Shown here piece after piece: positions 1,866 to 61,153 of a DNA stretch of 64,000 nt (its first letter is position 1; every line of letters begins with the position of its first letter). Source of the DNA: Podarcis filfolensis. Lineage: Eukaryota. The notes below the pieces were generated by a model that was not told the DNA's origin, ran no database searches, and was given only the letters and a program-made list of their open reading frames with translations. The DNA lies in assembly GCA_964270895.1 (NCBI GenBank), contig OZ185437.1. One strand, 5' to 3'. The position numbers and the translations under genes are program-made.

Positions 1866-2011
1866 CAGTGCTTTTTTCCCTTAAAAAATGTTTAAGGGTA
1901 CTTTCATTTCCTACTCATATTGAAATACTGTCCCTCAATGAGGCCAAAGTTAGATTCACAAAATGTTTAGGGTTATGCGTACCCCTGTGTACCCCCAGAA
2001 AAAAAGCACTG
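1866..2011. mobile_element. hAT-type MITE
   Basis: TIRs cagtgctttttt / aaaaaagcactg with a perfect 8-bp TSD gctatacc (1858-1865, 2012-2019); an inverted sister copy lies at 40322-40466. Confidence 0.9.
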
Positions 2012-4409: not shown

Positions 4410-4651
4410 CCGTGGTACCTCAGGTTACATACACTTCATCTTACATACACTTCAGGTTACAGACTCCGCTAACCCAGAAATAGTGCTTCAGGTTAAGAAC
4501 TTTGCTTCAGGATGAGAACAGAAATCATGCTCCGGCAGCGCGGCAGCAGCGGGAGGCCCCATTAGCTAAAGTGGTGCTTCAGGTTAAGAACAGCTTCAGG
4601 TTAAGAACGGACCTCCGGAACGAATTAAGAACTTAACTCGAGGTACCACTG
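4410..4651 (+). mobile_element. Tigger/pogo-like (Tc1-mariner) MITE
   Basis: TIRs c(c)gtggtacctc / gaggtaccactg with TA flanks; four full copies occur in the window. Confidence 0.9.
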
Positions 4652-6769: not shown

Positions 6770-7790
6770 GACCTTCCCAGACACCAGTAAGATATGGGTA
6801 GTCAATTGTGCATTGTACATGGGGCTGCCACTGAAGATGGTTTGTAAACTTCTATTGGCTTGGGTGATCACTGGGGCAAGACGGTTAGAGCACATAACAC
6901 CAATCCTGGCCAATCAGTTTCCAGGTCCAATTCAAAGTGCTGTGTTGACTTTTAAAGCCTTAAACGGCTCAGGACCACAATATCTCAAGGACCACCTCTC
7001 CCCTTATGAACCTACAAGAACTCGGAGATCATCATCTGAGGCCCTCCATGAGAGGCCTGAGGGTGGCAGCATGAGAATGGGCCTGTAATGGCTTTAGGGG
7101 TTGCTTGTGCGTAAGTTGCCGCCGCTCTGGGCTAGGTTGGCTGGTTAAACCATTTCTCGCTGGACAGCCATCCACTCCGTGGCTGTTCAGTCGCTGGCAG
7201 AATCCGTCAGTGGGCGTTTCTTAAACCTTTTCCAACATAAAAGTTGTTTGACGCCCAGTCTCCTCCTACTCTCCCTGTGCGGAAGTCTTCTGCGCAGGGA
7301 GGGCGTGGGTAGCGGAGGACCTGTGCTCTCCCCGCTGGTGTCCAGTGAAGAGTCCCGGAGCCTGCTCTCTGCTTCCCCCATTGGCCCCCCCTCTATCCCT
7401 GGTGTTGCGCTGAATTTCTTCCCCAACCGGAGACCTGCCTCTCTCCCTGCTTGGCCCCTCTCCAGCAGGAGCCTCGCCTCCTCCTCTAGTTCCGATGGCA
7501 GTTCCCTGACAGGGCCTTTTCTGTAGTGGCTCTCCTTTTGTGGAAGGCTCTCCCCAGGGAGGCTCGCCTGGTGCCTTTGTTACATATCTTTAGGTGCTAG
7601 GCAAAATCATTCCTCTTCAACTGGGCCTTTGGCTAATTAAACAGACTAAATGTGACTGTTCCAGGCTGGGGAATGAAGTATTTTTTTTTTGTATTACTAT
7701 TATGCTATGTGTTTTGTGTTTTTATGTAGTTTATTGCCCTGTGATCTTTTGAAGAAGGGTGGTATATAAATTCAATAAGAATAATAATTT
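6770..7790 (+). mobile_element. L2-like LINE 3' fragment interrupted by a solo LTR (approximate bounds)
   Basis: Translation CALYMGLPLK...HITPIL...FKALNGSGPQYLKDHLSPYEPTR is typical of the L2 ORF2 C-terminus; the host sequence resumes after 7511. Confidence 0.75.
7084..7511 (-). mobile_element. Solo LTR, family A, copy 1 (428 bp; strand given is that of its ORF)
   Basis: TG...CA termini, perfect 5-bp TSD gggcc (7079-7083, 7512-7516), GC/CpG-rich, homologous to 50213-50647. Confidence 0.88.
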
Positions 7791-9191: not shown

Positions 9192-9543
9192 CTTAGCAGC
9201 GAGTGGCGCTGTGGGTTAAACCACAGAGCCTAGGGCTTGCCACAGAGCCTAGGGCGGTTTGAATCCCTGTGACGGGGTGAGCTCACGTTGTTCGGTCCCT
9301 GCTCCCTCCAACCTAGCAGTTTGAAAGCACGTCAGAGTGCAAGTAGATAAATAGGTACCGCTCAGGCGGGAAGGTAAACGGCGTTTCATGTGCTGCTCTG
9401 GTTCGCCAGAAGTGGCTTAGTCATGCTGGCCACATGACCTGGAAGCTGTATGCCAGCTCCCTCAGCCAGTAAAACAAGATGAGTGCTGCAACCCCAGAGT
9501 TGTCCGCGACTGGACCTAATGGTCAAGGGTCCCTTTACCTTTA
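9192..9543 (+). mobile_element. Sauria SINE (Squam1), full length
   Basis: tRNA-like head tggcgctgtgggttaaacc...ggtttgaatcc, cctttaccttta tail, and a 12-bp TSD catgccaatgac (9180-9191, 9544-9555). Confidence 0.92.
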
Positions 9544-9891
9544 CATGCCAATGACAATCCATTGCTAGTATGGGAGGAGTGACAGTGCCTGCAGTGCTCT
9601 CTGCAATTAGAAGGGCACCTGTGGACCAACTCTACATCTGTGTACACCATTATTCAAAATCTATTGTGAATTAGAGAAGGTAGCAGAAAATACTAAATGA
9701 CATGTCTCTTTCAAAATTATTACAATATCCATGGGCCAAGATACAGTATGAGAGACTGCTGTGCTCATGAACAGGATTTTTAAGCTCCACATTAAAATGG
9801 TACTAGATTCAAGTAGGTCTGATGCAGTTGAAATAAATTAAAAAATTAAAAAATTGTCCAATAGCACCTTAGAGAACAACTATATAGTTCT

Positions 9892-10088: not shown

Positions 10089-10113
10089 AGAACTACTTAG
10101 CTGGTGTCTAAGG

Positions 10114-10451
10114 CACTGTGGGTTAAACCACAGAGCCTAGGACTTGCCAATCAGAAGGTCGGCGGTTCGAATCCCTGCGACGGGGTGAGCTCCCGTTGCT
10201 CGGTCCCAGCTCCTGCCAACCTAGCAGTTCGAAAGCACGTCAAAGTGCAAGTAGATAAATAGGTACCGCTCCAGCGGGAAGGTAAACGGCGTTTCCGTGT
10301 ACTGCTGTGGTTCACCAGAAGCGGCTTAGTCATGCTAGCCACATGACCCGGAAGCTGTATGCTGGCTCCCTCGGCCAATAAAGCGAGATGAGCGCCGCAA
10401 GCCCAGAGTCGGTGACGACTGGACCTAATGGTCAGGGGTCCCTTTACCTTT
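10114..10451 (+). mobile_element. Sauria SINE inserted into the PLE arm
   Basis: Near-consensus body with CpGs retained; taagg duplicated at 10109-10113 and 10452-10456. Confidence 0.92.
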
Positions 10452-12450: not shown

Positions 12451-12586
12451 CTGGCATAGGCAAACTCCGGCCCTCCAGATGTTTGGGACTACAGTTCCCA
12501 TCATCTCTGACCACTGGTCCTGTTAGCTAGGGATGATGGGAATTGTAGTCCCAAACATCTGGAGGGCCGGAGTTTACCTGTGCCTG
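12451..12586. mobile_element. Palindromic hAT MITE
   Basis: Long inverted arms ggcataggcaaactccggccctccagatgtttgggact; TSD acttagga / gcttagga. Confidence 0.85.
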
Positions 12587-13217
12587 GCTTAGGATCTAGC
12601 CTAATCTTCCTGCTCTGGTCCTGCCCTTAGAATATCCCCCGGAACGCTGAGCCAGGATGAGCAAGTTATGCTGTCTTATCTTTGACTGAGCCAGGGTTGG
12701 GGGCAGTGTTAGATACTGAGATATGAAAGCTAGGAGCTAAATGGCACCTTAAACCTAGGTTATGGGCGCAACAATGGAATGCTTAGGCCTGCTTTTTTAT
12801 GACAAGAATACAAAGGTGAAAATGAAAGAACTGCGGCTAAAATATTATGTTTGTTTTTCACATGGTCCAGTCCTTCTCCTGCCCACTCCCCTAATATTTT
12901 AGGAGGGTCTCTTCTCCAGTCTTCAGAGACTAGCTGGAGGCAGGGAGGCAGAAAACGGGCCTCCTTTCCTTCCAGTCCGCAGTTTTAATCTTAAATCTTA
13001 GGCGCAGTACTGCGCCCAAAGCTCAGAAACCGCTTGCACTAATGAAATTCCCTGTCGCAAAATGTGCCTAGAACAATGGGAGTTTCGAACACTGGTTGGG
13101 GGACCAAGAAAGAACGGTACACAAGTCAAACCACAGGTTGCAAGGATCAGCAGTTCCATGAGAGCTCAAAAGGCACGACTAGCCACGAGCTAAGATGTTG
13201 AACCAACAAGTGACATA

Positions 13218-13440
13218 CAATGGTACCTCGGGTTAAGTACTTAATTCGTTCCGGAGGTCCGTTCTTAACCTGAAACTGTTCTTAACCTGAAGCACCACTT
13301 TAGCCGCCACGCCGCCGGAGCACAATTTCTGTTCTCATCCTGAAGCAAAGTTCTTAACCTGAGGTACTATTTCTGGGTTAGCGGAGTCTGTAACCTGAAG
13401 CGTCTGTAACGTGAAGCGTATGTAACCCGAGGTACCACTA
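13218..13440 (-). mobile_element. Tigger/pogo-like MITE
   Basis: Reverse-orientation copy of the 4410 family with TA flanks. Confidence 0.9.
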
Positions 13441-13803
13441 TATTCTCTATGCTTTCCTTCTGAAGGATGGGGCGGGCACAATATTTAGTTCACCATGTGG
13501 CTGGAGTCCTGAGGCTGACTGCAAATGTGCTCTCCTTCTAGTGGGCTGGCTAGGTGAGGTTTTTGCATGCTGGTGCTGACATCTCTATGTCCTAGGTGAC
13601 GGAGGTGAGATGCAAGCCAGATCAGCATTGGATTTACTCCCAGCTGCATTCCGTGAACAGGGAGACTCCTGTTTAACAGGCAGATCCTTGGCTGAAGAAG
13701 CTAAGGGAGGCATCTCTGGGAGGGAGTTAATGGGAGGCCCTTCTGAGAGTTTGTGTAAGTCATCTTTGGAAGGCAGATTTCCGCCCGCTAACCCACTGGG
13801 ACC

Positions 13804-17570: not shown

Positions 17571-17960
17571 GGACCCACTGGAGATTTAAAGGAATTCTGG
17601 ATGCTCTGGGTGAACATTCCAGTTGCCATGACTTCTGCTTCTATGGAGGCTCTGGTCTTGCTTTAGAATTGTGAGATGGAAAGAGTTACCAACATAATCA
17701 CTCCCTAGCGTTTTGGCTTGCGGGAGTAGTTAGTTTTCAGCGTGGTTTTCAGCGTGGACAATACTTCGCTACATTGCTGCTGATTTTCCTTTTGAATCAT
17801 TCATGTTCTCCATGAAATGAATAAAAACTACTCTGGCATTTATTTTTGCTGTCCACGCTTGACCAGTGTGTATTTGGAAATTGGAAATGCATCCCAAAGT
17901 TTTTGTAGCATAAGAGTTCTAACAATGTTCTTTTTTTTTTTTGTCTCTGTCCTTCAATAG

Positions 17961-18080
17961 GATGATGAAGTGGTTCTGCAGTGCACTGCTACTGTTCACA
18001 AAGAACAACAGAAATTGTGCCTTGCCGCAGAAGGATTTGGCAACAGGCTCTGCTTCTTGGAATCCACTTCAAATTCTAAG
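17961..18080 (+). CDS. RYR2: RYR2 exon 2 (120 nt) [40 protein letters not shown]
   Basis: caatag acceptor and gtaccg donor; translation near-identical to the RyR2 N-terminus. Confidence 0.98.
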
Positions 18081-20860: not shown

Positions 20861-21084
20861 AAGGTAAAGGTAAAGGGACCCCTGACCATTAGGTCCAGTC
20901 GTGGCCGACTCTGGGGTTGCGGTGCTCATCTCGCTTTATTGGCCGAGGGAGCTGGCGTACAGCTTCCGGGTCATGTGGCCAGCATGACTAAGCCGCTTCT
21001 GGCGAACCAGACCAGAGCAGCGCACTGAAACACCGTTTACCTTCCCGCCAGAGTGGTACCTATTTATCTACTTGCACTTTGATG
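20861..21084 (-). mobile_element. Sauria SINE, 5'-truncated
   Basis: aaggtaaaggtaaagggacccctgacc tail and SINE body; the head is missing. Confidence 0.9.
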
Positions 21085-21684
21085 TTTCATAGTCACTGCA
21101 CTACTTGAGAAATAATCTTGCAGAGTGAGCAACTGGGGCAGGTGAGCAGTAAATCTTGGGGTTTAATTTGGGTTGAGTCATGTAAACTGCAGCTGGCACA
21201 CTGATGGACTCTGGACCTGGGACTCATAAAGAAAAAGTGTTTTAAATGCATTGTATATGCAGTATAACACTGTGACACCAGATGGCGCTGTGGAGTCCTG
21301 TCTTTCCCAACCGGATTTCCTTGTACGAGTTTACAACGTGTTGAACTGAAACACTTCTTTGATGTGTCTAGATCCAGCCCTGGTAGGACATCTTAGGGCC
21401 CGAGGAAATCATGTGTGTGGGGACAACTTCTGATTTGCTCTCCATCCTCCTCCAATGTGGACATTGCAGTTGTACAAATACTTAGCACCTAATTAAACCA
21501 AGAAGTACTTACAATTGCCTCTCTGGTGGGAGAAGAGTTTTATGGCTTCCACATGTTGTGATTCTCCCCCCACCCTCACAAAGAAACCAGCTGCTTAACA
21601 TTGTAGTTGTGCAAATACTTAAACATATAAGCACTTATTATATGGGCTGGTGTGGTACAATATCCAGGTATAGAAGTAAGCCCT

Positions 21685-22033
21685 AGGTAAAGGTAAAGGG
21701 ACCCTTGACCATTAGGTCCAGTCGTGACCGACTCTAGGGTTGTGGCGCTCATCTCGCTTTATTGGCCGAGGGAGCCGGCATACAGCTTTCGGGTCATGTG
21801 GCCAGCATGACTAAGCTGCTTCTGGCGAACCAGAGCAGTGCACGGAAACACTGTTTCACTTCCCACTGGCGTGGTACCTATTTATCTACTTGCACTTTGA
21901 CATGCTTTCAAACTGCTAGGTTGTCAGGAGCAGGGACCGAGCAACGGGAGCTCACCCTCTTGTGGAGATTCAAACCACCAACCTTCTGATTGGCAAGTCC
22001 TAGGCTCTGTGGTTTAACCCACAGCGCCACCCG
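21685..22033 (-). mobile_element. Sauria SINE, full length
   Basis: Runs from the tail to ...ggtttaacccacagcgccacc. Confidence 0.92.
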
Positions 22034-25000
22034 CCTTCCGTGTGTACAGGATTGCAGTCTGAATTAGTCTTAAAAGGTTCTACACAGGGCTGCTAACAAG
22101 GGCTTCCATGCATTTGGGAGTCATTCCCCCTCCTCCAGCTTGTTCATTTTTTATTTTCCAGTAAGTGGAACAAGGTTGAGGGATATGTAGACTAGGACCT
22201 GGAAGACCAGGGTTAAAATTACTCTGTCATGAAGCTCATTATGTGACCTTGGGTCAATCACTGGGCAGGATTCAGCTGTGGGTCTTTCCCCCTCTCTTTG
22301 CCCCACCTCCTTCCATGCCCCTGAAATTGGTTTAGGGGGGCCTCGGAGAACCCCTGGAACATGGAGAAGGGAGAGGTAGGGCTTGTTCTGTTTGCAAGCC
22401 AAAATACTTGCACTGATGCAACAATCAGAAGAGCGCAACATTGAATTCCTCCCACTGTCTCTCAGTGTAACTGGTGCCACAGGGTTGTTGGGTGGTTACC
22501 GGGGGGCGGGGGCGGGGGAGAGAACCATGAGTGCTACTTTGAGCTCCTTGGAGGAAAAGAGATAAGATATTATATAAGATCAAATACAATAAATAAAACA
22601 AATACAATTTTTCTGCAGCTATTCAGAATAAAAATAGCATTACAGTCAAGATCTATAAAGTTTTCATAATCCAGCATGAAATACATTAAACATTAGATCC
22701 CCTTGGGAGTTTTTCTTTAAAGTTTTTGTGTGGTGTCAAAACCAAGATAAAAGATAGCAGTGACTTACCACCAGAGCTGGCCTATTTTTGCATTACATGA
22801 TAAACACGACCATAATATCCTTCAGGCTGTTGGGTGTGTATATATGCAATTGCAGCTTCCTTAAACTACTTCAGATTACTCAATTGCCCATAATAGCTCA
22901 TTTGGGCTGTTTATCATTTAGCTGATTGAAGCTTCTGTACTCGGTGCAATGATCCTTTTCAAGTGTGAAGCACTCAGTATCACAAACAGAATCAGTGAAA
23001 CATTTAGAAACAATTTGTCTATAGTTAAGAGAATACTTTATTCCTAGAGGCTCTGGTTTACGTGGGAGGAAAGGAGTTAAATTAAATTTATTATAAGAAC
23101 AATAATGGCTGTTTATTCAAATCCCTGTCTCCCAGAGATAAAGGAGTGTGTCCTAAATAAATGAACTGGTTTTCCCCAGTGTTTTATAGTTGATACTATT
23201 TTAACTGTTCCATCAATAAATAAAATACTGTGATAGAAAAATGTAAATGCACAAAAGCGGATAATAATATTTGTTAAAAGCTTTATGAATCTAAATTGTG
23301 AATCTAACTGCAAGTCCAAGAAAAAACAAGGAGCTGCAGTTAGGAAAAGGAGAGGTGTGGGTATGTCAGGAAAATGCATTTAGCAGCACAAGCAGATAAC
23401 AGTGAAGTCATGCAGTCATGGTTGCTGGTTCTTTATAATGTGTACATTATTATGCAAAGTAGTGTGAATATTATTTGCTGTTCAGGGGGAGGCTGATTTT
23501 TACTATTTCTTTAAAACTGCAACTGTTAGATAAATATGTTGCATATCCTATAAAAGAAATATCAAATCATTTTAAGTAAAAAAAAAAACCCAACAGACTG
23601 GTAAGGAGCATAAAGATGTTCCATTATAAAAACCATTCTGGGTTGCTGTCACTTATGTGACAAGTAAATTACAGCACCTAGTTTTGATTTTAAAAGGATA
23701 GCTAAATTTCCACATCTTTGGGTTTTGGAAAAAGAGTAACTGAATGGTGAGTGCATGGACAGAAGAAATTTCTCTCTCTGTTCTATATAGCAGAAGGAAA
23801 TATCCCAGATCCCTTTCTGAACCAGATTTAAATAAAGCAAATTTTTTCTCAAAAGCAAAATGTGTATAAACTTTCGGCAGAAGTGTTGATTGCGTGCTGA
23901 TTATGGTTTTAGAATCTTGCATGTGAATGTTTGGTTCTAGGTAATCTTGGTTCTTAGGCTTTGTATACTGTAGTGGAACATTAAGCCACAGCAATTTTTG
24001 AGGTATGATTTTATGGTGCACACACACACAGACTTGCACTAATTAACTGGAATCTTAAAAATAGGCAAAGCTAACAATATAACACAATGAAGGTTGTGCA
24101 GACAGTTGTTAGGTTAGCAATTCTATTGGCTTTTAAGAGTTGCTTCCTTCACTAATCTATTTAATCACAGTAATATATTATACACGTGTCTATTTGATGG
24201 CCAGATGCATGTTAGCCAGAAAATGTGATTTAGCATGCTTATATATGACTTGTAAATTGATATATATAAATAGCGTGTGTTTTTGTGTGTGTGCGTGTGT
24301 GTGTGTGACTGTGAATGAATTCACTGCTACTTTATTCCTCTGTGATTTTTACGCCACAGAAGATTTGTTCCCTTTGTCCTGCATAAGTTCCTCTGCTGTC
24401 ACTCTTGATATCTTTATTCTATGTCGATAATCTTCACTTATCACAATTAGGCATGTGATCCTATTGTCCTTCATAATTTCACGCTTGAGTTATTTGAGAC
24501 CTCCCAGGACCTACAGCTACATTACCCTGTGTCATTAATGTCAATGTGCACTGACTGTTGACCCCACCCCAGCACTATCTACTAGGCTATCTAGATGAGG
24601 GGCAACACTTGCAACCATCATGCTAGGCAGGAAATTTACCTCATGTACGCACATTGGAGCTGTCACCCTGTGAGTGGGATACAGCTCTAACATCCCATCC
24701 ACAAACCTCTCTTCCTCTCTCAGGTTTTCCGAGTCAGCCACCTTGGCTTCAAGGAGATGAAATTGTTTGTGGAGATCCAAGAGCTCATTGCCCTGAAGAC
24801 ACAACCACAAGTTCTGTCTGGCAGCCAGATAGTTGTACATATAACAGATTGCGCAAAACACTGGAAAGCTCCCATGTGTCTTCTGACTTTCTGTCTGCGT
24901 AACTGTTTTTGTAGTTTATTGAGTTACTTTATTAGAAGCTTGGGTTTTGTTTAGATCAAGGAAAGGGGGGGCAGAGCAGTGTACTCTGGACTTCTTGCCC

Positions 25001-25772
25001 TGATGCCAAACTCATTTGGCTGTTTAACTTGCCTTGACACTTTGTTAGCTGGGGCAGACACACTTCATAAGCTAGTGCTGTCTGTTTCTAGTCTACTCGT
25101 GGCTGTGTGAGAAGAGGTGAGGAGAGAGAGCATGCAAACCTGAGACTCACAAAAGCTTTTTCCCGTAATTAGAAACCATGGTATAACATATATCCAAACA
25201 TAGCCAGTGAGTGCTAGACATCAAATAATAGTGGGAGCACTGCTGTAAACCGAAAATCATTATATTTTACTTTGCAACTCTGCTGTCAAATGCAGTCACG
25301 ACTTCTCCTGCCAGTAGAATTTTATCTCAAATAATGTTACAGTGTAATCCTGATTGTGATTGACAATCTGTTACTCTCTTGAATAGCAACGTTCTGGTGG
25401 CTGGTTTCTTTACCACTTGGTATGGACTCTTTTTTCTACATGTATACATGCATTCCTACTAGTAAGGTCGCCACCATCCCATCTTCACCCAGATTCATTT
25501 AATTAATGTGAATTTCCTAGAATAGCTTATTTGAGTAAATTAGTTTTCATGTGCTCCCCCTGCCTTTCTTCAGATGGCTCTTTGGGTTAATTAAGGCTGC
25601 AATCCTAAACACATTTACTAGACTCCAGAGGGTAAGTCTCATTGAATTTAGGGGAAATTATTTTTCTGTTAGCACACTTAGGATTGCCCTGTAAGTAAGG
25701 AATGATCTGTCAACAACTAAATAATAAGCAGTGCTTCGCTGAATGCTGTCTTCATCGTGTTTTTTCAACTAG

Positions 25773-25877
25773 AATGTTCCTCCGGATCTCTCCATCTGCA
25801 CTTTTGTGCTGGAACAGTCCTTGTCCGTGCGAGCCCTCCAGGAAATGTTGGCCAACACGGAGGAGAAAGCAGAAGGG
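25773..25877 (+). CDS. RYR2: RYR2 exon 3 (105 nt) [35 protein letters not shown]
   Basis: aactag acceptor and gtgagc donor; RyR motif. Missed by the ORF track. Confidence 0.98.
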
Positions 25878-26791
25878 GTGAGCAGCAATGTCTCCGCCTT
25901 TTAATTAATTTGTAATTGCTTTTGGATTCTATTAAGTGTCTTGTTATCCGTGATGCTTTTTATTAACACCTCAGCTTTTGGAATCCTATTACACTCCTTA
26001 TTTTATTGAAGTTTACATTCCCAGAAAACTTAAATGACAAAAAGCCATGGAAAACTTAAAACCAAACATGAAAATGTTTTCCCCCTGCTGTCATTATCCT
26101 TGCAAACCAGAAAAAAATGTATGAATATTTTGTTTTCATAATACTTTCCACATGACCATTACAAAATATGGAGTATATATCAGTCTTGGAAACCAGATAG
26201 GCATATACTTATATAATTTGAGTTCTTTATGCCTAGCTTTAATCATGTATTTATCAGTTTCTAATGAATATTGATCTTTAGTCTTCTCATTTTGTATTTT
26301 ATATATGTTATATAATCAATATGGTGTTTGTATCTAGAAGTATATATAACTTTATTATTTTTTTAAAAAAATACACATTAGTTAGTGTATTATACAAAAT
26401 ATACTCTGATTTTCCTGTACCGCATAATGATGGTATTAAACTACTTTTTAAATGATGTTTTACACATATTCTTTCACAATAATAAAGCTAGCTGGTGCTT
26501 GATAGATTTCTGCTTTTGCCTTTCTTCCTTTCTATTTCATCTTCTTCGGTTTCAAGAAGAAATAACCTGCTTCTGCAACAAGAATTGCATCATTCAAACT
26601 TACCCTCTTGTACAGATGTCTGATTAATTTCTGCAGTTCAGTTCTTGCAGTGTCACAACTACCTTGAATTCCTGGTAACATTGTTTAGGAGTCCCCAGTA
26701 AATAAATAAATAAGCACTTTATTGAACCTGGCTATAAATGAAAACCAATTAGGAGATGCTAGGTAAGATTAAAAGCAGTAGTAAGGAAATA

Positions 26792-27017
26792 CAGTGGTAC
26801 CTCGGGTTACAGATGCTTCAGGTTACATACACTTCAGGTTACAGTCTCCGCTCACCCAGAAATAGTACCTCGGGTTAAGAACTTTGCTTCAGGATGAGAA
26901 CAGAAATTGTGCAGTGGTGGCACAGTGGCAGCTAAAGTGGTGCTTCAGGTTAAGAACAGTTTCAGGTTAAGAACAGACCTCCAGAACGAATTAAGTTCTA
27001 AACCCGAGGTACCACTG
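26792..27017 (+). mobile_element. Tigger/pogo-like MITE
   Basis: cagtggtacctcgggtt...aacccgaggtaccactg with TA flanks. Confidence 0.92.
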
Positions 27018-30000
27018 TATGTGCCTATAGGAACAGTTCATAGTTGAAATAGGTAGAATTGGTTAGATCCTTTATAAATAAAATCTAACTTGTTGTCAAT
27101 GTTCCTTACTTGCCTTGAAATCAATTAAATCAAACTGTGTGGGCAAAGCTTTGGTGAACAGCTGACCCAAAGCTTCACAATCAGCTATGGGTCTTGTGGA
27201 GCTCCGTGTCATGGGGATTTCGAAGCTGCTCTAGCCTCCTAGTCTGATATTTACCTTGAGCTGTCCAGGGTGCTACTTTGTTTGCCTGAATTTGCCTTAT
27301 GTTAGTGGTGGAGAACCACAGTTCTGGGGTGCAAATGCTGTCTATCGGACCCTTGGGACTTTGCTCAGGTCATACTTGCTCCAATACCTTCTTCACATAC
27401 CCCTTGAGTGTTTTTGCTTGGCTAGAATGTGCCGTTGAACCCTAATAATGCTTCTTGTTTGCCTGAATGGAAGAGAGAGAGGTGTGTGTGTGCACAAAAC
27501 CAGTTTACAAGACAAAGGTAAAAGGACGTGCTTGATATGAACTGTGCTAGCCTGGAATCTTCTTGTAGTTATTTGAAGAAGGATGCTTATATATTTGAGG
27601 ATCCTGTTTTGAATGTTTCTCCCTCCCACTGCCAATCGGAGTGCCCAACTTTTAGGACTGCACATGGCAAACTTCAGTGATATCCCTAATTATAATAACT
27701 CAGTATCTGTTAAAACCGATCTAAAAGCTGGATTGAGAACAAAGATCACAAGTGCCTCAAAAAAATAAAAATAAAATAAAATAAATGCCTCCAGGAAAAT
27801 TAACAAAAGTATGAAAGAGCTAAGATTCTGATGCTTGGAGGACTTCATGGTGAAAGTCAGAGAGCCTATTACAGGATGAGAATATGTGTCTAGTTTCACT
27901 AGGCACTTTGCTATGGGGCTAATTAAATATGACCTCCCCACATTGCTACCCCATTTGCAGGCAGTACATGTTTGGGGGAGGGGATTCAAAAATTTCAGGA
28001 AGATTTTGTTATTTTACCATTGGTGGCTTATTTGTTCATTGTTCTTTTTGTTTTTGTTTTTAAAGAAAAAATATAATTGCAGATTTTGAGATGCAGTTAT
28101 AGAAGAGCAAGTTGTCAGTTTGTTTTTACTATGATGTCCTGGTTACTACAGTGTCTTGGGTGTCTTTGTGTAGCATGCTCAGAGCTTGTCCCTGTGTTCT
28201 AATGCTAATTGTGATAAAAGATGGATTTCCTCAGCTGCAGCAGAAGCAAATGGGAATGTTACCTCTTTAAAGTCCTGCATTTGATCTGTCTCACGTGAAC
28301 TACCACATGACAGCAACTGCATCATTTCATCTTTCTTTAAACTAATATTTTGGAGTCTAAACAGTTTCTGTTTAATATCTTATAACCAAAATGTAATCAG
28401 AAAAGATTTGTATGATAGATTGGCCATAAACCCTGTCATACTTAATTATATAAATCTGTTCTTCTGTGATTTGTTCCAGAATCTTGTGCTTAACATGTTG
28501 CTTGTATATCCAACTGTCTGGCCTTGTTTAGATCAAAGCTGACATAAAGTACTAAAATACACTGCACACATCTGTAGAAGTATCCTTCAGTTACGGTAAT
28601 ATAAAGGATAAAATGCAAATGGCTTATGTGCACAATCCATGAAGACACTTTCCTTTTCAAATCTATCATAAAGAATGCTATTAATTAGAGTGAGCAAGAA
28701 ACCATGTCCTTGTCCAATTTCCTGCTGGAAGCTTTGTCTCCTCTTCACCCACCCCATTTTTAGGGTTTATTAGTACACTGAGTATTGTCCCTTGTCTTGT
28801 TTCCTCAGTCCCCACCTTTGTTTTTTGTGGTTCAGCCACTATCCTGTAAGAAATGCCAGTTTTTCAGGAGAGGAAGAGTTATAATGGAAGGAACTGAATG
28901 AAGGAAATAATATATGATACTTAAAGTTTTGGAAAATAAGCTGTAGGGTGACAAGAACTTTTTCTGTGCCTCATATGTGGTATATGATGCTGAAAAAGTA
29001 TGTGCAGCTTTCTGAGTTTTTAGGATAAAGCCATTTTGTAAGTAAAATATAGGGTCTATCTTAATATGGCTGGATCTGAACTTTGATTATAAATGGAAAG
29101 ATAAATTTCATGCCTCTATTACAGAAAATAAAACCTTAGGCTATGTAAACAGATCTACATCTTTCAGTTGCAATATAAAATTTGTTGCCAGACTTGGTTT
29201 TACACCTGAGATTGCATCTGTAATAGCTCATAGGAAATGAATAAAAAAAAGTGAAAATATATAAGCCTGATATGTATACACATGAAATATTTACTCGGGG
29301 GGGGGGGAATCAAGTTCTGTGAAGTACAATTTTGTTGTTGGCATTATTGTGCCATGAAGTTTCTTAATGGGGAAGGGGTGACACCTGTATCCAAGCATCC
29401 TTGGAAAAGGCAGGTACACCCTGCCCCCTGTGTAGCTATCGTCCGAGCAGTGTTATGGACTATGGGAAGACTATTTTAGGATGCAGCTTCTAGGGCATAT
29501 GCACTGCTTGGATCTGGAATGCTACTTTTTTGTGCCTCCTTGTCAAAATTAAACTACTGTGAAAGTGTACTGAGCATTACCTGTTGGAGGCTAGAGCAGC
29601 CCTTTGAGAGCAAGATTACTACACAAGCTGTGCAAAAATGATTGCAAAGCCAAAATATAATTGTTCTATCAGGGCAGTTTAGATAGATGCATTGAATGTT
29701 GAGGCATTTGTATACTGTGGCATCTGAGAGGAATATGCCCTTTAACTGTGATGATACAGTGCATGTCTGAAAAAAGGAATTGAGGGGTGTGTTTAGAAAC
29801 CTTTTGACACCTTTGCCTCTGGCCCTGCCCACCACTGATAATCAGCCCCCTCATGAGGGAATGCAGACCTCAGGTTGAAAAATATCACTGCTTCTGCTGT
29901 GCACTGCCAAAACTGCATTCAGAGTCTCATTTCTGTGTGGATTTCCTTTGGCCTCTTGAATGCAGACTTTATTGTGAGAAGAAAAATTGGGCACATGTGT

Positions 30001-34367: not shown

Positions 34368-34875
34368 CCGTATTTTTCGCTCTGTAGGATGCACCCGACC
34401 AGTGGTGTAGCGTGGGGGGTGCAGGGGGGGCAGGCCGCACCGGGCGCAACATCTGGGGTTAGGGCAAATCCACGGGTTAGGGGGCGCAAATCCACGGGTT
34501 AGGGGCGCAAATCCACAGGTTAGGGGGTGCAAATTACTTGCCTTGCCCCGGGTGCTGACAACCCACGCTACGCCACTGCACCCGACCATAGGACCATTCT
34601 CCCCTCTCTGCGCAGCGCCCCTTCAGCCAAGCGGCAGGAGAAACGGAGCCCCTTCCATTTCTCCTCCCGCTTGGCTGAAGGGGCGCTGCGCAGCTTTCCC
34701 TCTCTGCTGAAGCCAGGAGAGTCTTGCTCTCCTGGTTTCAGCAAAAGCAACGCGAAGCCTCCGGAGCCTGCATTCGCTGAAGCCAAGGAGCCTGCATTTG
34801 CTCCATAGGACGCACACACATTTCCCCTTAATTTTTGGAGGGGAAAAAGTGCATCCTATAGAGCGAAAAATGCGG
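34368..34875. mobile_element. Tc1-mariner-like MITE
   Basis: TIRs ccgtatttttcgctctgtagga / tcctatagagcgaaaaatgcgg with TA flanks. Confidence 0.88.
34400..34578. mobile_element. Young hAT MITE with an internal GGGTTAGGG-containing tandem array
   Basis: TIRs cagtggtgtagcgtgg / ccacgctacgccactg, perfect 8-bp TSD cacccgac, CpG-rich. Confidence 0.92.
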
Positions 34876-44071: not shown

Positions 44072-44419
<348 letters not shown>

Positions 44420-48640: not shown

Positions 48641-50212
48641 GTAAATTTTATGATGGGAGGGGGAAAAGATGGTCTTGACAGGATACTGTGGACTGGGCCA
48701 CTTGGTGTTCTGAGAAGGAACCAGCAAGAGAACTGCTGCACTTATCACTCCCTAAGCCCCATAGCTCTAGGAAAGGGGCTATGTCACAGGCCCCATGAGG
48801 TGGGGAGACTCTTATTAGCAACTGACCAAGTGCATTGAGACCAGACTGACCCCTTGTCTATAGCTGATGTCACTGGGTAAAATGCCAGCATGAAAAAAGT
48901 AAAGTAGAAGGAACTGTTACTGCTCTGCTATCCTCTGGGAATTTGGGACTGTATTGCCTGGGGAAGTAAGTGTGAGATTGACCAAAGTCTAATAAAGCTA
49001 GGCTTTTGCCAAGCTTGTCTTCATTTGGGGCTCACATTTGAGCATATTCCCCTCATGGAATCTGTGGATCATGGAGCATTATTCATTGTGCCACTTCCCG
49101 AGGACAGTCCCACAAACAGAACAAGCAAAGAAATTAATAGGCTGGAATACTAATAGTGCAATCCTATATACTTGTCCTCAGAAGTAAGTCCCATTGAGTT
49201 CAGTAGGGCTTAATTCCAGGTAAGTAAGTATAGGATTGCAGCTTTAGTCATTTTTTTTTTTAAGCTGTACAGGTTGCAGTCTTGGTTACTCAAAAGCCTT
49301 CATTATACTTACTTGCTATATTTAGTTAAAATTGTTTGAGGACTTAAATCTGTTCAAGGGTTTATGGTTAAAGCACATGGCAAATCACCTGCTTTGCATA
49401 TTGGGTTCAATTCCCAGTATTTCCAGTTGAGAAGGACCTTAACTAGAAGAGCTGGGATCTTGGAAGAGACTTTGCCCAAGATCTTGGAAGCTATTGCCAA
49501 AGTACCAAAATACGGGAACTTCTTATGACCCCGTTCCCAAATCTAAATGTAACATCCTTTTAGACCATAAGCATGAATGGAAATCTTAGTTCTTGTTTTG
49601 AGCAGTTGTTCTATAACAGTGAGTGCCAACAACAGTGTAGATTAAGAAGATACATGGTGGATTTTGCAAATACTTTTCTTGAAAATTGAGCCTGATCCTA
49701 CATGGGCTTCACAATAAGAGGACCCACTGAAGTGAATAAAGCTTGCTTTAGCCAAAGGCTTGTGGAATTGGTATTTTTGATACTTTCGTTTATTGAGAAT
49801 AGAAGTGTCATTTTATTTTTTTTGTCATTTTTCTGTTGCCCAGAGAAAGAGAGAAACCAGAGAGAGAATACTCTAGCAGCTCCTCTGTCACTTTATATGG
49901 AATCTAGAGGGAGAATAATGATTATGTGTCACCGTGTTTGGAGCTGGAGCAGAGTCACTATGGTGGGAGAAAATGTTTTTTACAAGAACATAGAGATACT
50001 TTTTCTCTCACTTTCCATATCCTACTCTGATGAGATTAATTAAGCTCATTTATTTATTAATGGAACTTTTAGACCAAACTTCATTACAAAGAATCAAAGA
50101 ATGGTTACCAGCATGTTATAAAACACACTGGAAAATCATCACCACCACCACCACTACCACCGCCACTGCCACCCATTGGTTATAAGACCACCACCAGTAT
50201 CCTAAAACCTAT

Positions 50213-50647
50213 TGTCAGGGAACTGCCATCGAAGCCAGAGGCGGAGGCAAGGCTCCCAAGCGATGCTGGAGAAGGGCCCAGCAGGGAGAGAGGCAGCTCA
50301 TCGGCTGGGGAAGGAAATCAGCGTAACACCAGGGATAAAGGGGGGCAGATGGGGGAATTGGCGAGGGGGCTCCAGGACTCCTTGCCGGAGACCAGCGGGG
50401 AGAGCACGGGTCCTCCGCTACCCACACCCACCCTGCGCAGAAGACTTCCGCGCAGGGAGAGTAGGCGGAGACTTGGCGTCAAAGAACTTTTGTGCTGGAA
50501 GAGGTTCAAGAAACGCCCACTGACGGATTCTCCTAGCGACTGAAACAGCCACGAAGTGAAGGGCTGTCCAGACAGAAAAGGTTTAACCAGGCAACCTAGC
50601 CAGGAGTGGCGGTAACTTACGCACGAGCAACCCCTATAACCATTACA
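50213..50647 (+). mobile_element. Solo LTR, family A, copy 2 (435 bp; strand given is that of its ORF)
   Basis: TG...CA termini, perfect 5-bp TSD cctat (50208-50212, 50648-50652), homologous and inverted relative to 7084-7511. Confidence 0.9.
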
Positions 50648-50899
50648 CCTATGATAGCCTGAACTTCAGTCATCAAATGCTCAGGAGAACAAATAGGATT
50701 CCAGAAACAGGTGTATATTATTCACCTTCAGGTTCCACAGTTGGGGAACTGTTGCAGAGAAAGCGCAATCCTGTATTGTGGTCCTGAATGCAACAGCTGA
50801 AAATGAGACATTAAAAAGGATCTCTTCTGATCCCAATTTTTGGATTTGATATATAGGGAGAGAAGCTAAAACAAATACCTCAGTCCCAGGCCATGCAGG

Positions 50900-51130: not shown

Positions 51131-51179
51131 CCACTGAAACTAGCTAAGCCTCAAGAAACAGTGCTGAGTATCCCTAGAC

Positions 51180-51314
51180 CAGGCTTCCTCAACCTCGACC
51201 CTCCCAATGTTTTGAGACTACAATTCCAGCATCCCTGACCACTGGCCATGCTAGCTAGGGGTCATGGGAGTTGTAGGCCAAAAACATCTGGAGGGCCGAG
51301 GTTGAGGAAGCCTG
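51180..51314. mobile_element. Palindromic hAT MITE
   Basis: TIRs caggcttcctcaacctcg / cgaggttgaggaagcctg with a perfect 8-bp TSD ccctagac. Confidence 0.92.
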
Positions 51315-53210
51315 CCCTAGACTATGAACCTAGTCCTTCAGAGTGAGTGTGGCTTCATGCAGAACAGACCATTCACCCAAATCTGTGACATAGTAACTGC
51401 CCACCAGCAGTGCCTCTGTCTTGTCAAGATTCTGTTTCCATGTATTGGTCCTCTTTCAACCCATTACTATCCACAGGTCCTGGTTCTTTGCCAAAACAGC
51501 TTCATCTGGTTCAGATGGTGTGGCGAAATAGAGCCGAGTACAGTATCATTTGTAGATTTATTTACTGATAATATCATAAAACACCAGGGCATTGAACAAC
51601 AGTAAAACAAAAATCACCCTTAAAAGCAATACATTGCACTACCCCTACCTGTTTCCCAGAACCGGGTAATCAACCAGAGTGAGCAAAACCTGGGCAAACA
51701 GCCAGATTGAAATTGGCCATGATAGGTCTGCTAAAGATTACAATAAAAGGTGTTATAATTGGGACTTGTGTTGGTTAGCATGACACTGATTAAAGAGTGT
51801 TGGAAACACCAATGATGCAGGTTGATGCACCTGCCTCAGGGAACAAAAAATGCAAGAGGTGGTGTCCTGCCCTTCCCACCACTTCCATTACTGCTGGAAC
51901 ATGCCCTCTCTCATTTTGGAAACGCTCTGCCTCTCCTCTGAGTTCAGCTAGAAGGGGCATTCCTGTGTGTGTCATTCTCACTTGTCTTTCCTGCCCCAGG
52001 GCAGAGAAGACAAGCAGCAATGCTTTGTGGAATGTTCCAGCTTTCACCAAGTTCAGCAAGGGGAACATTGTAATGGCGGCAGAAGCTGTGGTGGGCTGTG
52101 GCAGGGGGAGCAGGAGATGGCATGTTCCTCTTTTACCTCAAGGGGAGAAAAAGGACAGGCCAGGTCAGCATTTCTGAGCCAGCAAGGTTAAATGACAATA
52201 AATTGGAATTTGGTGGACTGAATGTTCATGTTCCAGCTTGTTTAAGCTGCTATCTCATGTTATCTGTTCCCTATATTTAAAATGGAAGCAATAGTTAAGT
52301 GCTTTTCTGAGTTGCTGAATATAAATAGAAGTGCTATATAAATCGGTGGTATAAAAAAATCCATAGAGAGGGAATGTAATTAGTACTCTTCTCATCAAGA
52401 AAAGTGAAAATAGATTTCAGGGAATAAAAAAAAGCCCCATTTCCACATGCTTATTTAACTGTACACAAGTTTAATGGATCCCACTTCAGAGCTGATAAAA
52501 AATACCAGGATGGCATGAGAATGGTTTGGGCAATTTAAAATATGTGAACCCTAAATTATTTGAGGCTCAGTTATAGAATGATACCTAACAGTGATTGCTC
52601 CTTTAGTTATTGTTCTACAAATTATTTTATGCTGTCTCTATTCAAGGAAGTTTCTTTGCTGTCCGTTATTACTCATGGTTTGTTTTAATTATAGCTGTAT
52701 ATTTTAATAATTTTGCTGTAAGTCAGCCAGGGAATGTTTAATGATGGACAGCTGTATGCATTTAATAAATAATAATAACACACAAAATGGAAATGCAGCT
52801 CCATTGCAAAGCTCTATTACGACCATATCTCTGATGAGTATGGTAGGATGATCAACTCCCTATTTGAGCAGTTAATGTATCTTCTGTTACTCCCACCTGT
52901 TTTTCTATCGGGAGCAAAAATACATTTTAATTAATTTAGTTCCTGGGCTGCATTTGGTCAGAATTCTTGTTTTAGTCTTCTATAAACACAAGCTACACTT
53001 AAACCTTTCCCCTGACAGGGATCAAGGCAGATAAGAGCAGCTAAAATTTAGGAAAAAACCCAATCATTAAGAAACAATTAAACATTGATAGAATTAAAAC
53101 CACCTATCTACACACACCCTTCCCCCACCCCTATTAAAACTGGATAAATAATTACAATAAAAAAGCACAGCATAAGCCCTTTCATTAAAAGCAGTTTGAA
53201 CAAGAAAGTA

Positions 53211-53436
53211 CAGTGGTACCTCAGGTTGCATACGCTTCAGGTTACAGATTCCACTAACCCAGAAATAGTGCTTCAGGTTAAGAACTTTGCTTCAGGATGA
53301 GAACAGAAATTATGTGGCGATGGCACAACGGCAGTGGGAGGCCCCATTAGCTAAAGTGGTGCTTCAGGTTAAGAACAGTTTCAGGTTAAGAACGGACCTC
53401 CGGAACGAATTAAGTACTTAACCCGAGGTACCACTG
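53211..53436 (+). mobile_element. Tigger/pogo-like MITE
   Basis: Same TIRs as the 4410 family, with TA flanks. Confidence 0.92.
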
Positions 53437-56400
53437 TATTCACTTGCTGGTGGAAGGAAAGCAAGGGGGGAGCCAGTCTAGCTTCTCAAGGGAGGGAGTT
53501 GCAAAGTCTGGGAGTAGCCATGTTTAATCCTCCCAGGACTCAAGTGATGTTTAATGGAGGAGAAGGGAGGCACTTCAAATAGTCATTTGGCAAACCCCTC
53601 TCTAAAGTGCCTCCCCTCTCTTAAAAGGGACTGGGGGTTGGGGTGAGCTGTGAGGGGAGAAATGGGTGATGTATAAAGGGAGGGTTGCTGGTTTGGGGTC
53701 AGATTCAAAGTTCAAAGTGAGGAGGTGTTGGCTAGGTGTGGGAGAAGGGAAGTTGGCAAAAGAGTTGGTGGGTAGGCTGGGTTGCCAAGTGAAGCATGTG
53801 GGGTGGCAGCCCTAGTTAACAGCGCTCATATGTTAGCTTTTCTTGAATTTAAAATTGTGTTAAAAATTTTGACACTGACAGAAGGATTGCTGAGCTATTT
53901 TTTTTTTTAAAATGAAAAGGACAGATCCAAACCATGAGATTAAATCAAACCTAAATTGACAATAAATCCACCCCATTTTTAAAACATGCTGCTATGAGGG
54001 ATAGGCAAACAATAAAGGCAGGTTTATAGGGTTCAGAAAAGCACAAGATACCACAACAATATTTCGTCAACCTGGAGTGCAAAGGTTTATCAGACTAAAA
54101 TGAATCAATTTTTCTTCCAGCATACTGCATTTGGTTAATGACAGAGAGGCCTTTTTCTGCCTTTCTTTGGCAGAAAAAGCCCTCATTTATTAGATACAGG
54201 TCACCCATGTCAAAATTTATTGAAATACACTTGATTTCATAACAGTCGTAATGCGTTTAGGCAACATATTTGTCTATGTTGTCAGACAAAGATGGCTTGC
54301 TTGAGAATATTTCTAAGGTACATTCGCTTCGATCAGAATTCTTTTTGTCCCTCATTTCCGATGCCTAATTGTTATGTATTGCTATGCATATGTGTTTTCC
54401 TTTTTTTTGACAGTTACAGGTTTCTGTTTCTTTAAGAAATGCAGACTATGGAATTTTGCACTTGTGCCTGCTTAGATCTAAATACACCTTGCTGAGAAGA
54501 AAAGCAAATGGGATCCTACAGTGATAAATTAAGAAAGTGTATAGATTGTTTGGTACATAATTTCAATGTTACAGGCTTTGAAATAAACTGGGTGGACAAG
54601 GGAATTCATTGGCTGGGGGAGAAACAGCACAATGGTTCTATCCAGACTAGCTGCTTAAAAGCATGGATTCTTTAATGAGAGGCATGATTTTTATAGGGAA
54701 AAATTGAAGAAGGTTGTACAGTGGCATAAACCAAAATGTGTGTGAGCTTTAGCCCATCTTCTGAGTGCATGAAAAACTGCTGGTCTGTGTGCACCCTGCC
54801 TTTCTGATTTTGAAAGGGCTAAGCAACTTCTCAGTTCAGTTTGGGGACTCAGCTACATTCGTAAAGATAAAGCGCTTTATATGCGTTATAACATATGCCA
54901 ACTAGTTTTCCTTATATGAAGTTTACAACACGTTTAACTGAATTGCTTTTTTGATGTGTCTAGATGCAGCCTGGGTTTCTATTTGTGGGGCACTATAGTA
55001 TATAGTGAAACCAGTAATTGTGAAGTAATGGGACAGGATCTGATATTCTATCAGATGAAAAACTTTAAATAGCTTGATTTACAATTCAAGCATACCTCTG
55101 GCGCTATGTTGTTACTCTCTGCAAAGTTCCTAAATGGGAATAGTAAGCTGAGAAATAGAAACATATGGCACAGTAGGTCGATAGCATTTGTAACAGCAGT
55201 AGCTATTTCATTTAAGACTGCAATAGTGAATCCAGTTGTATCCTCACTAGTTCAATGAATTCAGTAGGACAGACATATACACGTGAGAGGAACTGTGTCT
55301 TGTCTTAGATGCATTTTATTCAGGCCTTTTTCTTCTGTACTGATAAATAAAAGCTTATGTATCTTTTTTAAATATCTGCATTGGAGCCTATGCAGTTCTC
55401 TGACAAGCTTTTCCCTCATGGTTATTAATTAGTGCTAGGGGAATATAAAGTAATAATTCAATTTTTATTCCATGTAACTAATTTGTTGTTTTAATTAAAT
55501 GGAATAGATTCAGTGATCTGGGCTCCTTGTTTAGGTTTAGCCATGGGCAGGCCTGTGCAATTTCCTAATTTACATCACACAAATGTGATTTTTTTTTTAA
55601 CCACAACAGAATAAATTGGTAGAAATTTGATTGGGTCTGCTGGGCTCCTACACACCTGTCCCAGTAGTGTAACTTCATATGTTCAGCAGAAAAGCAAGGA
55701 ATACGCGTAGGAAGCTTTTAAGATCAAGGAAAATGTTGAATTGTCCACAGGATTGTAGTGAATTCTCAGCAAATTACCAATTTCCATACCCTAGTTCAGA
55801 GGTGGTTAGCCCAAGAAGTTTTTTTGTGGTCTACTAATACCCCTCATTTGTCACTTGAAGAAAAAAAAATATTGATGGTTCCTATAGGTCTCCTGCTGTG
55901 GTGCCATGATGCTTAAAGGTGTTTTTTTTTTTTTTACAGCTGTCAACTCCCATGTTTATCCTTTAAAATAATAATTTTAAAAATCTGACTACTCTCATTA
56001 TCACCTGTCGTGATGCCTAAAGGTTCTTGTGATCCCTCGTTACCCACAAATTTGTCCTTGAATTTTATTTGCCACTCTAGCTTTTACACTCCAGCCATTT
56101 CCACATTTACCTATGATCCCTTGGAGGGTTGACCATGGCTCAATGTGGTACGCAGCCCCCCCCAAAAAAGCTTGGTCACCCCCTTAGGTGGTTTTTGTAA
56201 CAGGACAGTTAACAGTACAGGCAAGAAGAAGTGGTTGCTTTTTGTTTTCATTGGAGATTATAGAAACACGAATATATTTATTGGAGCTGACCTTTCGTCT
56301 GAACTGCGCAGGCTTTTCAATTACTGTCCAAACAAGAAAATAAGCATTAATTGAAACCTCCTGCACAACCATGGCAACATAGGTTTAGTTGACAATGGTT

Positions 56401-59278: not shown

Positions 59279-60617
59279 GTAGAAAACTCAAGTGCAGTGA
59301 CAGATAGTGTAAACTTGATGGAAACATTAACATTTCCAGTTGAACTATAATTTCTTAGCAGTTGGGCTGTGCATGCTTGTAGCATTCTCTCTATGAAATT
59401 AAATAGCAGTGGACCATAAAAGTACATAAGGGTAAAAGTTGTGAAAGCAGATCTTAGATCCGGCTCCTGCAATTGTCTTTTGATTTCATTTTGTTATGTT
59501 GGGCTTTACAACATCTGGAACACTACTCTTTGGATCTTAATACCTACATGCCTGATATATTATGCATTTGATACAAATTCTCTTTAAAGTACAGTGTGCA
59601 TGCATACACTTTTTCACTGTTAGTCTGTTTGTCATAAATTACTCTCTATATAAGTTAAATCGTGACCCTTTAAAAGTCAGATGTGTATTTATATTGATGA
59701 AACAATTTCATAAGAGTGTTGGGAAAATATGTATTAATCTAGGGCTGCCAACTAATACTCAGCTGGGAGTAAATCCAGTTCAGCTCGGTGAGGGCTGCAC
59801 TGTTGGCTAATCTTTTTTGCACACCCATTTTAGAGTTTTCACACTCCTGCCCCATTGTTCAGTAGATGGAAGCATGTCAGTCTTAATAAAAAGCTGCATT
59901 CTGTCTCTTCAAACTGGCATCTTCTCTTTAAAACTTTTATTTAAATCTTTAATGTTCATATAATAGCTTTAAAGTGCATTGTGTACTGGCTTTTTATCTG
60001 ATGGATCTGAAAGAATCACAGCTTCAGTGCAATGTCATTAAGTTTATTACAACTGAGTGAAGCTGAAAAAATGCTGCTAGAGCCAAACTGATTTACTATA
60101 ATTTTATGTGTATGAATTAGTCCAGTTTGGAGGATTCCCATAGGCTCAGTTGAACCTTGTTTCATCACCCTTATATACACATGCGTATATCCCATATAGG
60201 GGGAGGGGGGCCTATGGGAATCAACTGTGTGCAGGTGATGTGGATGACTGGATCATGCCTTTCAAATTTGTGCATAGTTAGTGTGTTAGAATTACTATAC
60301 TTGAAAACGTATATAATGAAATGATATAGACTCCATGCACAGAAGAATTAAAAATAAACATGTAAGTAAAATGTTGCTTGTATAGTAATGTTGTACGTAT
60401 ATAAAAGAAATTGAATTTATGGGTGTTTGGAGAAATGTGGTTGTATTATGGAGGATAAAAACATACACTTAAATCTAATTGAAGTAGGTCAACCTTTAGC
60501 TTGTACGCACAAATGCTATCAGTTTTAATGCTTACTATTTTTTATTTAGGAAAAGATATTTCACCTTTCAAAAAATTTTAATGTATGGGCTAACGTATTA
60601 CATCTTCTTTAAAAAAG

Positions 60618-60782
60618 GAAAAATTGGATGTGGGTATAAGAAAAGACGTGGAAGGAATGGGAGCACCTGAGATAAAGTATGGAGACTCAGTCTGCTTCAT
60701 ACAGCATGTTGACACTGGATTGTGGCTCACGTACCAGTCAGTGGATGCGAAGTCTGTAAGAATGGGGTCTGTGCAACGCAAG
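60618..60782 (+). CDS. RYR2: RYR2 exon 13 (165 nt) EKLDVGIRKDVEGMGAPEIKYGDSVCFIQHVDTGLWLTYQSVDAKSVRMGSVQRK
   Basis: aaaaaag acceptor with a ctaac branch point at 60590-60594; gtaaga donor. Confidence 0.97.
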
Positions 60783-61153
60783 GTAAGATGTTTTATACAA
60801 AGATATCATATATTTATGTTTAATATTATGCGAATGAAAAGGCACTGTCGGTGTGGCATTTTACATTTCAACTTTTCCCAAGTACTAAATGTGTTTCCCT
60901 ATCAAAATAACAGTAGGCACCGAATCCTTTGGGACAGAATTTCATGTTACAAAGATTACAAGGCGGCTGGTGAAACTCTAGTCCCATGCCCCCACCACAA
61001 TGTAGTTCCATATAACCTATACAAGGGCTGTTTTTTAGACAGAACTCACTGGAACTCAGCATGTAAAGCACTTTGAGCATTTGGGAAGAGTTCTGTACAA
61101 AATGATAGTTTTCTCCTTTTGTGATCCTTGTTCTTTGATTTTGTTTTTGGCAG

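Follow-up and report, generated by a model that had tools for sequence, protein, structure and literature searches.

The coding sequences of HIV nef, MMTV sag and foamy-virus bel overlap the U3 region of the long terminal repeat (LTR), each as a separate gene with its own mRNA, and the integrase of lentiviruses binds the host proteins LEDGF/HRP2 through folded domains. An LTR can also encode the end of Pol; the Pol frame of plant CRM group A elements is described as extending into the 3' LTR, where the LTR encodes the CR motif, which is put forward as a targeting domain (PMC3059260), and that of the beet Bingo elements is likewise reported to extend into the 3' LTR (PMC3605345). Tf1, sushi-ichi and MAGGY, whose group features have been outlined (10.1101/2022.12.06.519325), have a CCHC Gag, a GGGAAAC site with Pol in the -1 frame, the domain order PR-RT-RH-IN with SH3 and a chromodomain, an 11-nt self-priming primer-binding site (PBS) and a 5-bp target site duplication (TSD). 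The chromodomains of vertebrate chromoviruses have been described as group I, in a source that places the methyl-lysine cage at HP1 positions Y24, W45 and Y48 (PMC3350952). Finally, the host motifs called TIMs or IBD-binding motifs are described as a helix, an acidic, CK2-phosphorylated linker of 8–16 residues and FxGF, often in tandem (PMC9987994), and a DPF3a peptide with the same layout has been reported (PMC7337902).

We find that a reading frame in the LTRs of a lizard retrotransposon very probably codes for the integrase C-terminus of a Tf1/sushi-type Gypsy element, and that this tail ends in a selected module. A layout in which Pol runs into the LTR is already known from the plant CRM elements and is now found in vertebrate chromoviruses. 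Among the matches listed in our literature searches (the best 20 or 30 of larger sets) there was no vertebrate case of Pol running into an LTR, and no TIM in a retrotransposon; reading frames go unmentioned in the available excerpts of an LTR-structure survey that models sushi LTRs (PMC3601003), and the accessible portion of a Ty3 intasome preprint draws only a topological parallel with LEDGF. The lizard families themselves may already be catalogued in Repbase/Dfam.

The window analysed here is a stretch of 64,000 nucleotides of Podarcis filfolensis contig OZ185437.1, and it holds two solo LTRs of the element, copy A and copy B:

50208..50212, repeated at 50648-50652, no strand: 5-bp TSD CCTAT of copy A, read from the sequence
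50213..50647, plus strand: solo LTR (copy A), subfamily A of a Tf1/sushi-type chromovirus, 435 bp, TG...CA
50214..50543, plus strand: very probable LTR-coded C-terminal 109 codons of Pol/integrase with stop (TGA 50541-50543), a relic in the solo LTR
50519..50529, plus strand: 11-nt PBS complement, the predicted self-primer; the U3/R border and RNA 5' end are placed here by prediction
7084..7511, minus strand: solo LTR (copy B), subfamily B, TSD GGGCC, self-primer at 7201-7211, two offsetting frameshifts in the head

The TG...CA LTR and the 109-codon frame of copy A, with its translation, were reproduced as a preliminary description of this DNA had given them. Copy A is 97–99% identical to the 39 other copies scored with it and 85% identical to copy B, from which it differs in TSD. 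The same description took copy B to be open to the homologous stop; it is an independent insertion and its frame is open, but only by way of a 7-nt loss and a 1-nt gain, so that about 27 of its head codons are out of register. Among the nearest relatives of copy B, 24/30 are in register with copy A and 5/30 have the 1-nt gain alone. This gain lies in a G run, is common to six of 30 subfamily-B LTRs (L034, L035, L036, L052, L053 and the window copy at 7084-7511) and shifts the tail frame; it could be either recurrent slippage or the mark of a sub-lineage copied in trans.

The rest of the window contains exons of a ryanodine-receptor-type gene and other repeats:

44255..44377, plus strand: ryanodine-receptor-type exon, Ins145_P3_rec, upstream of copy A
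60612..60791 (approximate limits), plus strand: ryanodine-receptor-type exon, MIR domain, downstream of copy A
17946-18080 and 25770-25871, plus strand: further exons of the same gene type
4404-4653, 13202-13446, 26789-27022 and 53218-53451: dispersed repeats or palindromic elements, group one
9199-9544, 10112-10451, 20862-21085 and 21685-22034: dispersed repeats or palindromic elements, group two
12453-12584, 34608-34693 and 51174-51320: dispersed repeats or palindromic elements, group three

Since such exons lie on both sides of copy A, it is intronic and in the sense orientation; this is a single case and carries no evidence on insertion-site bias. The exons recognised all lie downstream of copy B. 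The other repeats comprise two dispersed families of about 230–350 bp and several short palindromic elements.

Searches of the lizard's own genome gave about 3,000 candidates per query; scoring was limited to the best 40, which over-represents young copies. Of 60 loci classed, 52 are solo LTRs (5-bp TSD perfect or with one mismatch), three are 3' LTRs, two are 5' LTRs and three could not be classed. A full-length element is flanked by an LTR pair that is 99.8% identical, and LTR pairs differ at 1/435 and 4/434 sites, so these insertions are recent. Full-length copies encode Gag with a CCHC knuckle, PR, RT, RNase H, IN, SH3 and a chromodomain; Pfam places these in the Ty3-like order PR-RT-RNaseH-IN in L031, with zf-CCHC in Gag, and the best PDB match is Ty3 Gag-Pol (E 3e-57). 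The chromodomain (PF00385) at the integrase C-terminus scores above the cut-off (E 3e-10) and is folded in the predicted model. A GGGAAAC slip site lies in the Gag-Pol overlap with Pol in the -1 frame (L031, L062 and L063), and in 3/3 elements the PBS is the 11-nt complement of LTR nucleotides 307–317. This primer/PBS pair co-varies, with a compensatory change in the L080 family, and its duplex is present in the predicted RNA fold. The elements examined have no env reading frame between integrase and LTR. All these features, together with the 5-bp TSD, are as in Tf1, sushi-ichi and MAGGY, and by domain order and mode of priming the element is a Tf1/sushi-type chromovirus of the Ty3/Gypsy group and not a retrovirus. 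Its close database relatives are Podarcis gene models, which together with a LEDGF exon described below marks the host as a lacertid. Reads from four RNA runs cover the LTR on both strands without a pile-up at the start site and barely touch the internal region, a pattern that says nothing about expression of the full-length element.

The gag region of L031 (contig G000:C19) also carries a nested insert of about 3.5 kb (1027-4528 in the orientation of the element) bounded by 382-bp direct repeats that are 99.7% identical. Its 899-codon frame contains zf-CCHC, rve and SH3_retrovirus without RT and enters its own 3' repeat; the insert is possibly a non-autonomous Copia-like element. This contig shows strong clustering of chromovirus internal regions and of nested insertions, as would be expected if it were a sex chromosome rich in repeats.

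The relation of the LTR frame to Pol is seen in the full-length copies. In L004 and L008 an unbroken frame leads from the integrase core through SH3 and chromodomain, then across an acidic linker of 96 residues and the polypurine tract (PPT), into the 109 LTR codons and ends at the same TGA. This continuity from core to LTR stop holds in two of the three subfamily-A 3' LTRs examined; the third, L003, has one stop in the chromodomain and is in the same frame. The single subfamily-B element, L062, has a deletion within the linker and is open from the linker onward. Database protein P0001 ends in the same tail (74% identity over the tail), again continuous with integrase and chromodomain, and the UniRef Podarcis models P0129 and P0132 have the same tail continuous with integrase; a HMMER scan of 1.84 billion representatives matched two proteins. 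Since the frame is continuous with integrase in L004, L008, P0001, P0129 and P0132, we regard it as the end of Pol. The preliminary description had proposed a separate LTR-encoded accessory protein, which this continuity in a Gypsy chromovirus contradicts; its alternative wording, a C-terminal domain, describes what is found, and in full-length elements the reading frame begins in the internal region, a point it had proposed to check. The lack of an ATG at the start of the frame, which had been listed as a caveat, is explained, because the frame continues from integrase. The LTR-coded part itself has no family or structure match in Pfam or PDB in a single-sequence search, and its best ESM Atlas score, 0.76, is at chance level. 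If the RNA starts, as predicted, at the self-primer (50519), codons 1–101 belong to U3, and in a solo LTR almost the whole frame lies upstream of the predicted start site; with no promoter upstream of the frame, the solo-LTR frame is a relic.

Compared with Tf1 and sushi, the lizard Pol has about 200 further residues after the chromodomain, of which the LTR encodes half, and its chromodomain is without two of the three cage residues. The CRM group A and Bingo elements share the layout in which Pol enters the 3' LTR. In CRM group A, a tRNA-primed plant clade, the CR motif replaces the chromodomain, whereas the lizard element keeps a chromodomain upstream of the PPT and self-primes. Unlike nef, sag and bel, the lizard frame is the end of Pol in a Gypsy element that lacks env.

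Within the tail the following parts can be told apart:

50214..50390, plus strand: codons 1-59, acidic/Ser-rich spacer, predicted disordered (pLDDT about 40-50), weak constraint, indels between families
50391..50540, plus strand: codons 60-109, conserved basic module, pN/pS 0.08
50463..50513, plus strand: bipartite-NLS-like segment RR-x10-KRFKK, residues 84-100, a pattern match
50487-50498, plus strand: LLCW motif within the NLS-like segment, kept in distant families

Codon counts were made on 30 subfamily-A copies and the 24 subfamily-B copies that are in register; the other six of the 30 B copies, five with the 1-nt gain and the one in the window, were left out. Of the copies counted, 29/30 A and 24/24 B (53/54) have an open sense frame, while each of the other five frames is open in at most one. 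Net pN/pS between A and B is 0.08 for codons 60–109 and 0.48 for codons 1–59. Tail differences between the subfamilies are nine synonymous to two replacement, against 13 to 30 among rare changes within subfamilies, which arose after insertion (Fisher p=0.004); constraint on the head, codons 1–59, is not significant in the same kind of McDonald-Kreitman-like comparison (p=0.29). Judged from these counts, only the last 50 codons (60–109) are under purifying selection. The earlier claim that the frame is protein-coding in a replicating element is borne out by this selection together with the continuity with Pol, and the claim of purifying selection holds for codons 60–109 and is without significance for the head. 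Its underlying count for copies A and B over the last 50 codons, 13 substitutions with four replacements, was confirmed in total, but only seven changes are third-position synonymous and not eight, the eighth third-position change being in the A/P codon; one further change is synonymous at a first position. Two of the four replacements, H/R and A/P, do not separate subfamilies A and B. The last 11 codons are near-identical as DNA between families because the self-primer lies there, and the last eight or so codons are constrained also as RNA.

A classical bipartite nuclear localization signal (NLS) consists of two basic residues, a spacer of 10–12 and a basic cluster. Residues 84–100 of the tail conform to this pattern, which is as far as the earlier reading of the Arg/Lys-rich tail as an NLS or nucleic-acid-binding segment is upheld, and the chances that the basic block is in fact a bipartite NLS appear to us evenly divided. 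Whether the LTR-coded end would serve nuclear import or nucleic-acid contact is likewise a matter of even chances; Ty1 integrase reportedly offers a precedent in its C-terminal NLS. L(L/A)CW followed by basic residues occurs in the family of copies A and B, in L080, L081, L075 and P0001 and in the distant P0005, and the predicted model has a short helix at ELLC and is disordered from about residue 72 on.

Read-through of Pol into U3 was seen in four related families beyond this one, in a sample of 20 chromodomain loci from other families, many copies of which are broken before the LTR. Pol enters the 3' LTR for 69–121 codons overall, with 100 in L080, 69 in L081, 102 in L071 and L072 and about 120 in L066 and L067. 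In 4/5 loci, those with a 10–11-nt match, the stop lies between -28 and +33 nt from the predicted self-primer, so that the whole of U3 is coding in them. The heads of these related tails diverge freely and their ends are Arg/Lys-rich, although in the L071/L072 and L066/L067 families the basic block cannot be aligned beyond being Arg-rich. The L080 sister family is very young, with many equal-scoring copies on many contigs and long open Pol frames, and shares both the tail and the two motifs described next.

Between the chromodomain and the PPT, outside the window, the element encodes two motifs, each with a helix ending in Phe, 8–9 acidic residues with Ser/Thr, and FxGF. One or two such motifs are found in five families of the lizard's own genome and in P0001, P0004, P0005 and P0131, while their flanks diverge. 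G-F is invariant and the first F is present in 10/11 aligned motif rows; the family of copies A and B has FxGF in both motifs, the L080 family has L for F in the first, and L081 has I for F in the second. The six-frame translation of the window, 127,996 residues, contains no motif, and among 100,000 composition shuffles none gave two motifs and 769 gave one. A helix is predicted at the first motif (pLDDT about 50–65) and none at the second. A profile search for motif-bearing integrases (best 7,988 candidates) gave 11 matches, including eight Podarcis-named proteins, P0001 and one motif-less element.

The lizard motifs have the arrangement of the TIMs of JPO2, MLL1, IWS1, PogZ and DPF3a, in which a helix ending in Phe, an 8–9-residue acidic Ser/Thr linker and FxGF often occur twice in series, and their linkers fall within the general TIM range; they differ from these host motifs in lying on the integrase of a mobile element. 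When the element motifs alone were made into a profile and this was compared with PDB, the LEDGF-JPO2 complex 5YI9 was second of six matches (E=0.21, not significant alone) and the sole match to cover the motif from helix to FxGF. Exons for the TND of LEDGF and of HRP2 are present in the lizard's own genome, and Lacerta and Podarcis proteins match a LEDGF exon exactly. It is probable from this resemblance that the FxGF motifs bind a TND protein, and we lean slightly towards LEDGF or HRP2 in particular as the partner; that they would take over from the degenerate chromodomain and steer integration to H3K36me2/3 chromatin can be proposed only tentatively. The proposed route to such chromatin through the TND of LEDGF/HRP2 is that of lentiviral integrase, but where the lentiviral protein uses folded domains the lizard element would use a linear motif of host type in a disordered tail.

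When aligned to HP1, the chromodomain of the family of copies A and B has N, W and E at Y24, W45 and Y48, and so does not have the group I cage; the sister family has Y, W and Y. Among 35 chromodomain rows (L079 and L082, which do not match the cage pattern, are left out), 21 of the 23 that do not keep Y-W-Y/F have a motif and none of the 12 that do keep it has one, an absence that is weakly tested because 7/12 have short frames after the chromodomain. In an integrase tree of the elements recovered here (L072 and L074 were too short to be included) the motif-bearing elements form one clade (99/99), the two motif-less members of which are broken just after the chromodomain, and the sister clade keeps the cage and is without motifs; cage loss and motif gain are thus one evolutionary event on this tree. 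The cage-intact elements L066, L067 and L076 have about 120 residues in U3, acidic/Pro-rich and then an Arg-rich block with SPRR. Because the cage-intact sister family also codes in U3, read-through is older than the FxGF motifs.

By analogy with Tf1, the RNA would start at LTR nucleotide 307 and prime itself, and ribosomes would read the tail only in the 3' LTR of full-length RNA, where it would form the end of Gag-Pol; at reverse transcription the tail would be copied into both LTRs, to persist as a silent relic in solo LTRs. We infer that -1 frameshifting and processing would yield an integrase with a disordered arm of 200 residues, of which the last 50 would likely make a module for nuclear import and chromatin contact, while the FxGF-bearing part is predicted to reach a host TND tether, most likely LEDGF/HRP2, and through it H3K36me2/3 chromatin. 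The fullest form of this proposal is one we hold to be somewhat less likely than not: a lizard Gypsy clade may have exchanged its histone-reading cage for FxGF motifs of host type, and its integrase would ride LEDGF/HRP2 into transcribed gene bodies, reaching the tether of HIV independently by linear-motif mimicry, with the whole U3 promoter doubling as integrase coding sequence.

Other explanations of the same data were weighed against this one. A separate accessory protein in the manner of nef, sag or bel, expressed from an RNA that is spliced or starts internally, or from an ATG at codon 46 (50349), gains some plausibility from the fact that subfamilies A and B and P0001 all have this in-frame ATG, upstream of the constrained part; we nevertheless consider it extremely unlikely, as the frame is continuous with integrase, the ATG lies upstream of the predicted start site, and it is absent from the L080 family, where the tail is equally conserved. 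Passive read-through, with conservation due to promoter DNA, RNA structure or the antisense frame and not to the sense peptide, would accord with the near-identical DNA of the last 11 codons around the self-primer, with the failure of the tail to match Pfam, PDB or Atlas entries, and with the antisense frame that shares wobble positions, which between A and B does nearly as well as the sense frame (pN/pS 0.15, 8:3, p=0.003). The antisense caveat of the preliminary description was therefore fair for the two subfamilies alone, and is settled only by continuity with Pol and by deeper comparison. Codons 60–101, upstream of the primer and with the R region excluded, still give 0.09 (8:2, p=0.003); against the L080 family, where synonymous sites are near saturation (pS 0.70, pN 0.19) and residues persist, the ratio is 0.27 for sense and 0.44 for antisense; and the antisense frame has a stop within LTR nucleotides 2–328 in 54/54 copies, and a 1-nt indel immediately downstream of the sense stop breaks its register between A and B. 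These observations make passive read-through very unlikely.

The third explanation grants that the tail is real and gives the FxGF motifs another use, such as binding to a different TND (IWS1, TFIIS or PNUTS), or a part in assembling particles or in transcribing the newly inserted copy. TIMs are reported to bind several TND proteins (PMC9987994), and the lizard variants in which L or I replaces the first Phe fit this more readily; the same source, however, describes FxGF as present in all known LEDGF/HRP2 partners and as specific to and essential for them, and the motifs sit where chromoviruses carry a targeting domain and are accompanied by loss of the cage. We regard such another use as a realistic, if somewhat less than even, prospect.

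The reading of the frame as the LTR-coded end of integrase explains why a selected frame is found in thousands of solo LTRs, since U3 then serves as promoter and as integrase gene alike. Should LEDGF/HRP2 prove to bind the FxGF motifs, a non-lentiviral mobile element would be on the same tether as HIV; this bears on what targets the integration of vertebrate Gypsy elements and would then be directly testable, the genome itself providing a natural control in the cage-intact, motif-less sister family, with many mapped insertions for each family.
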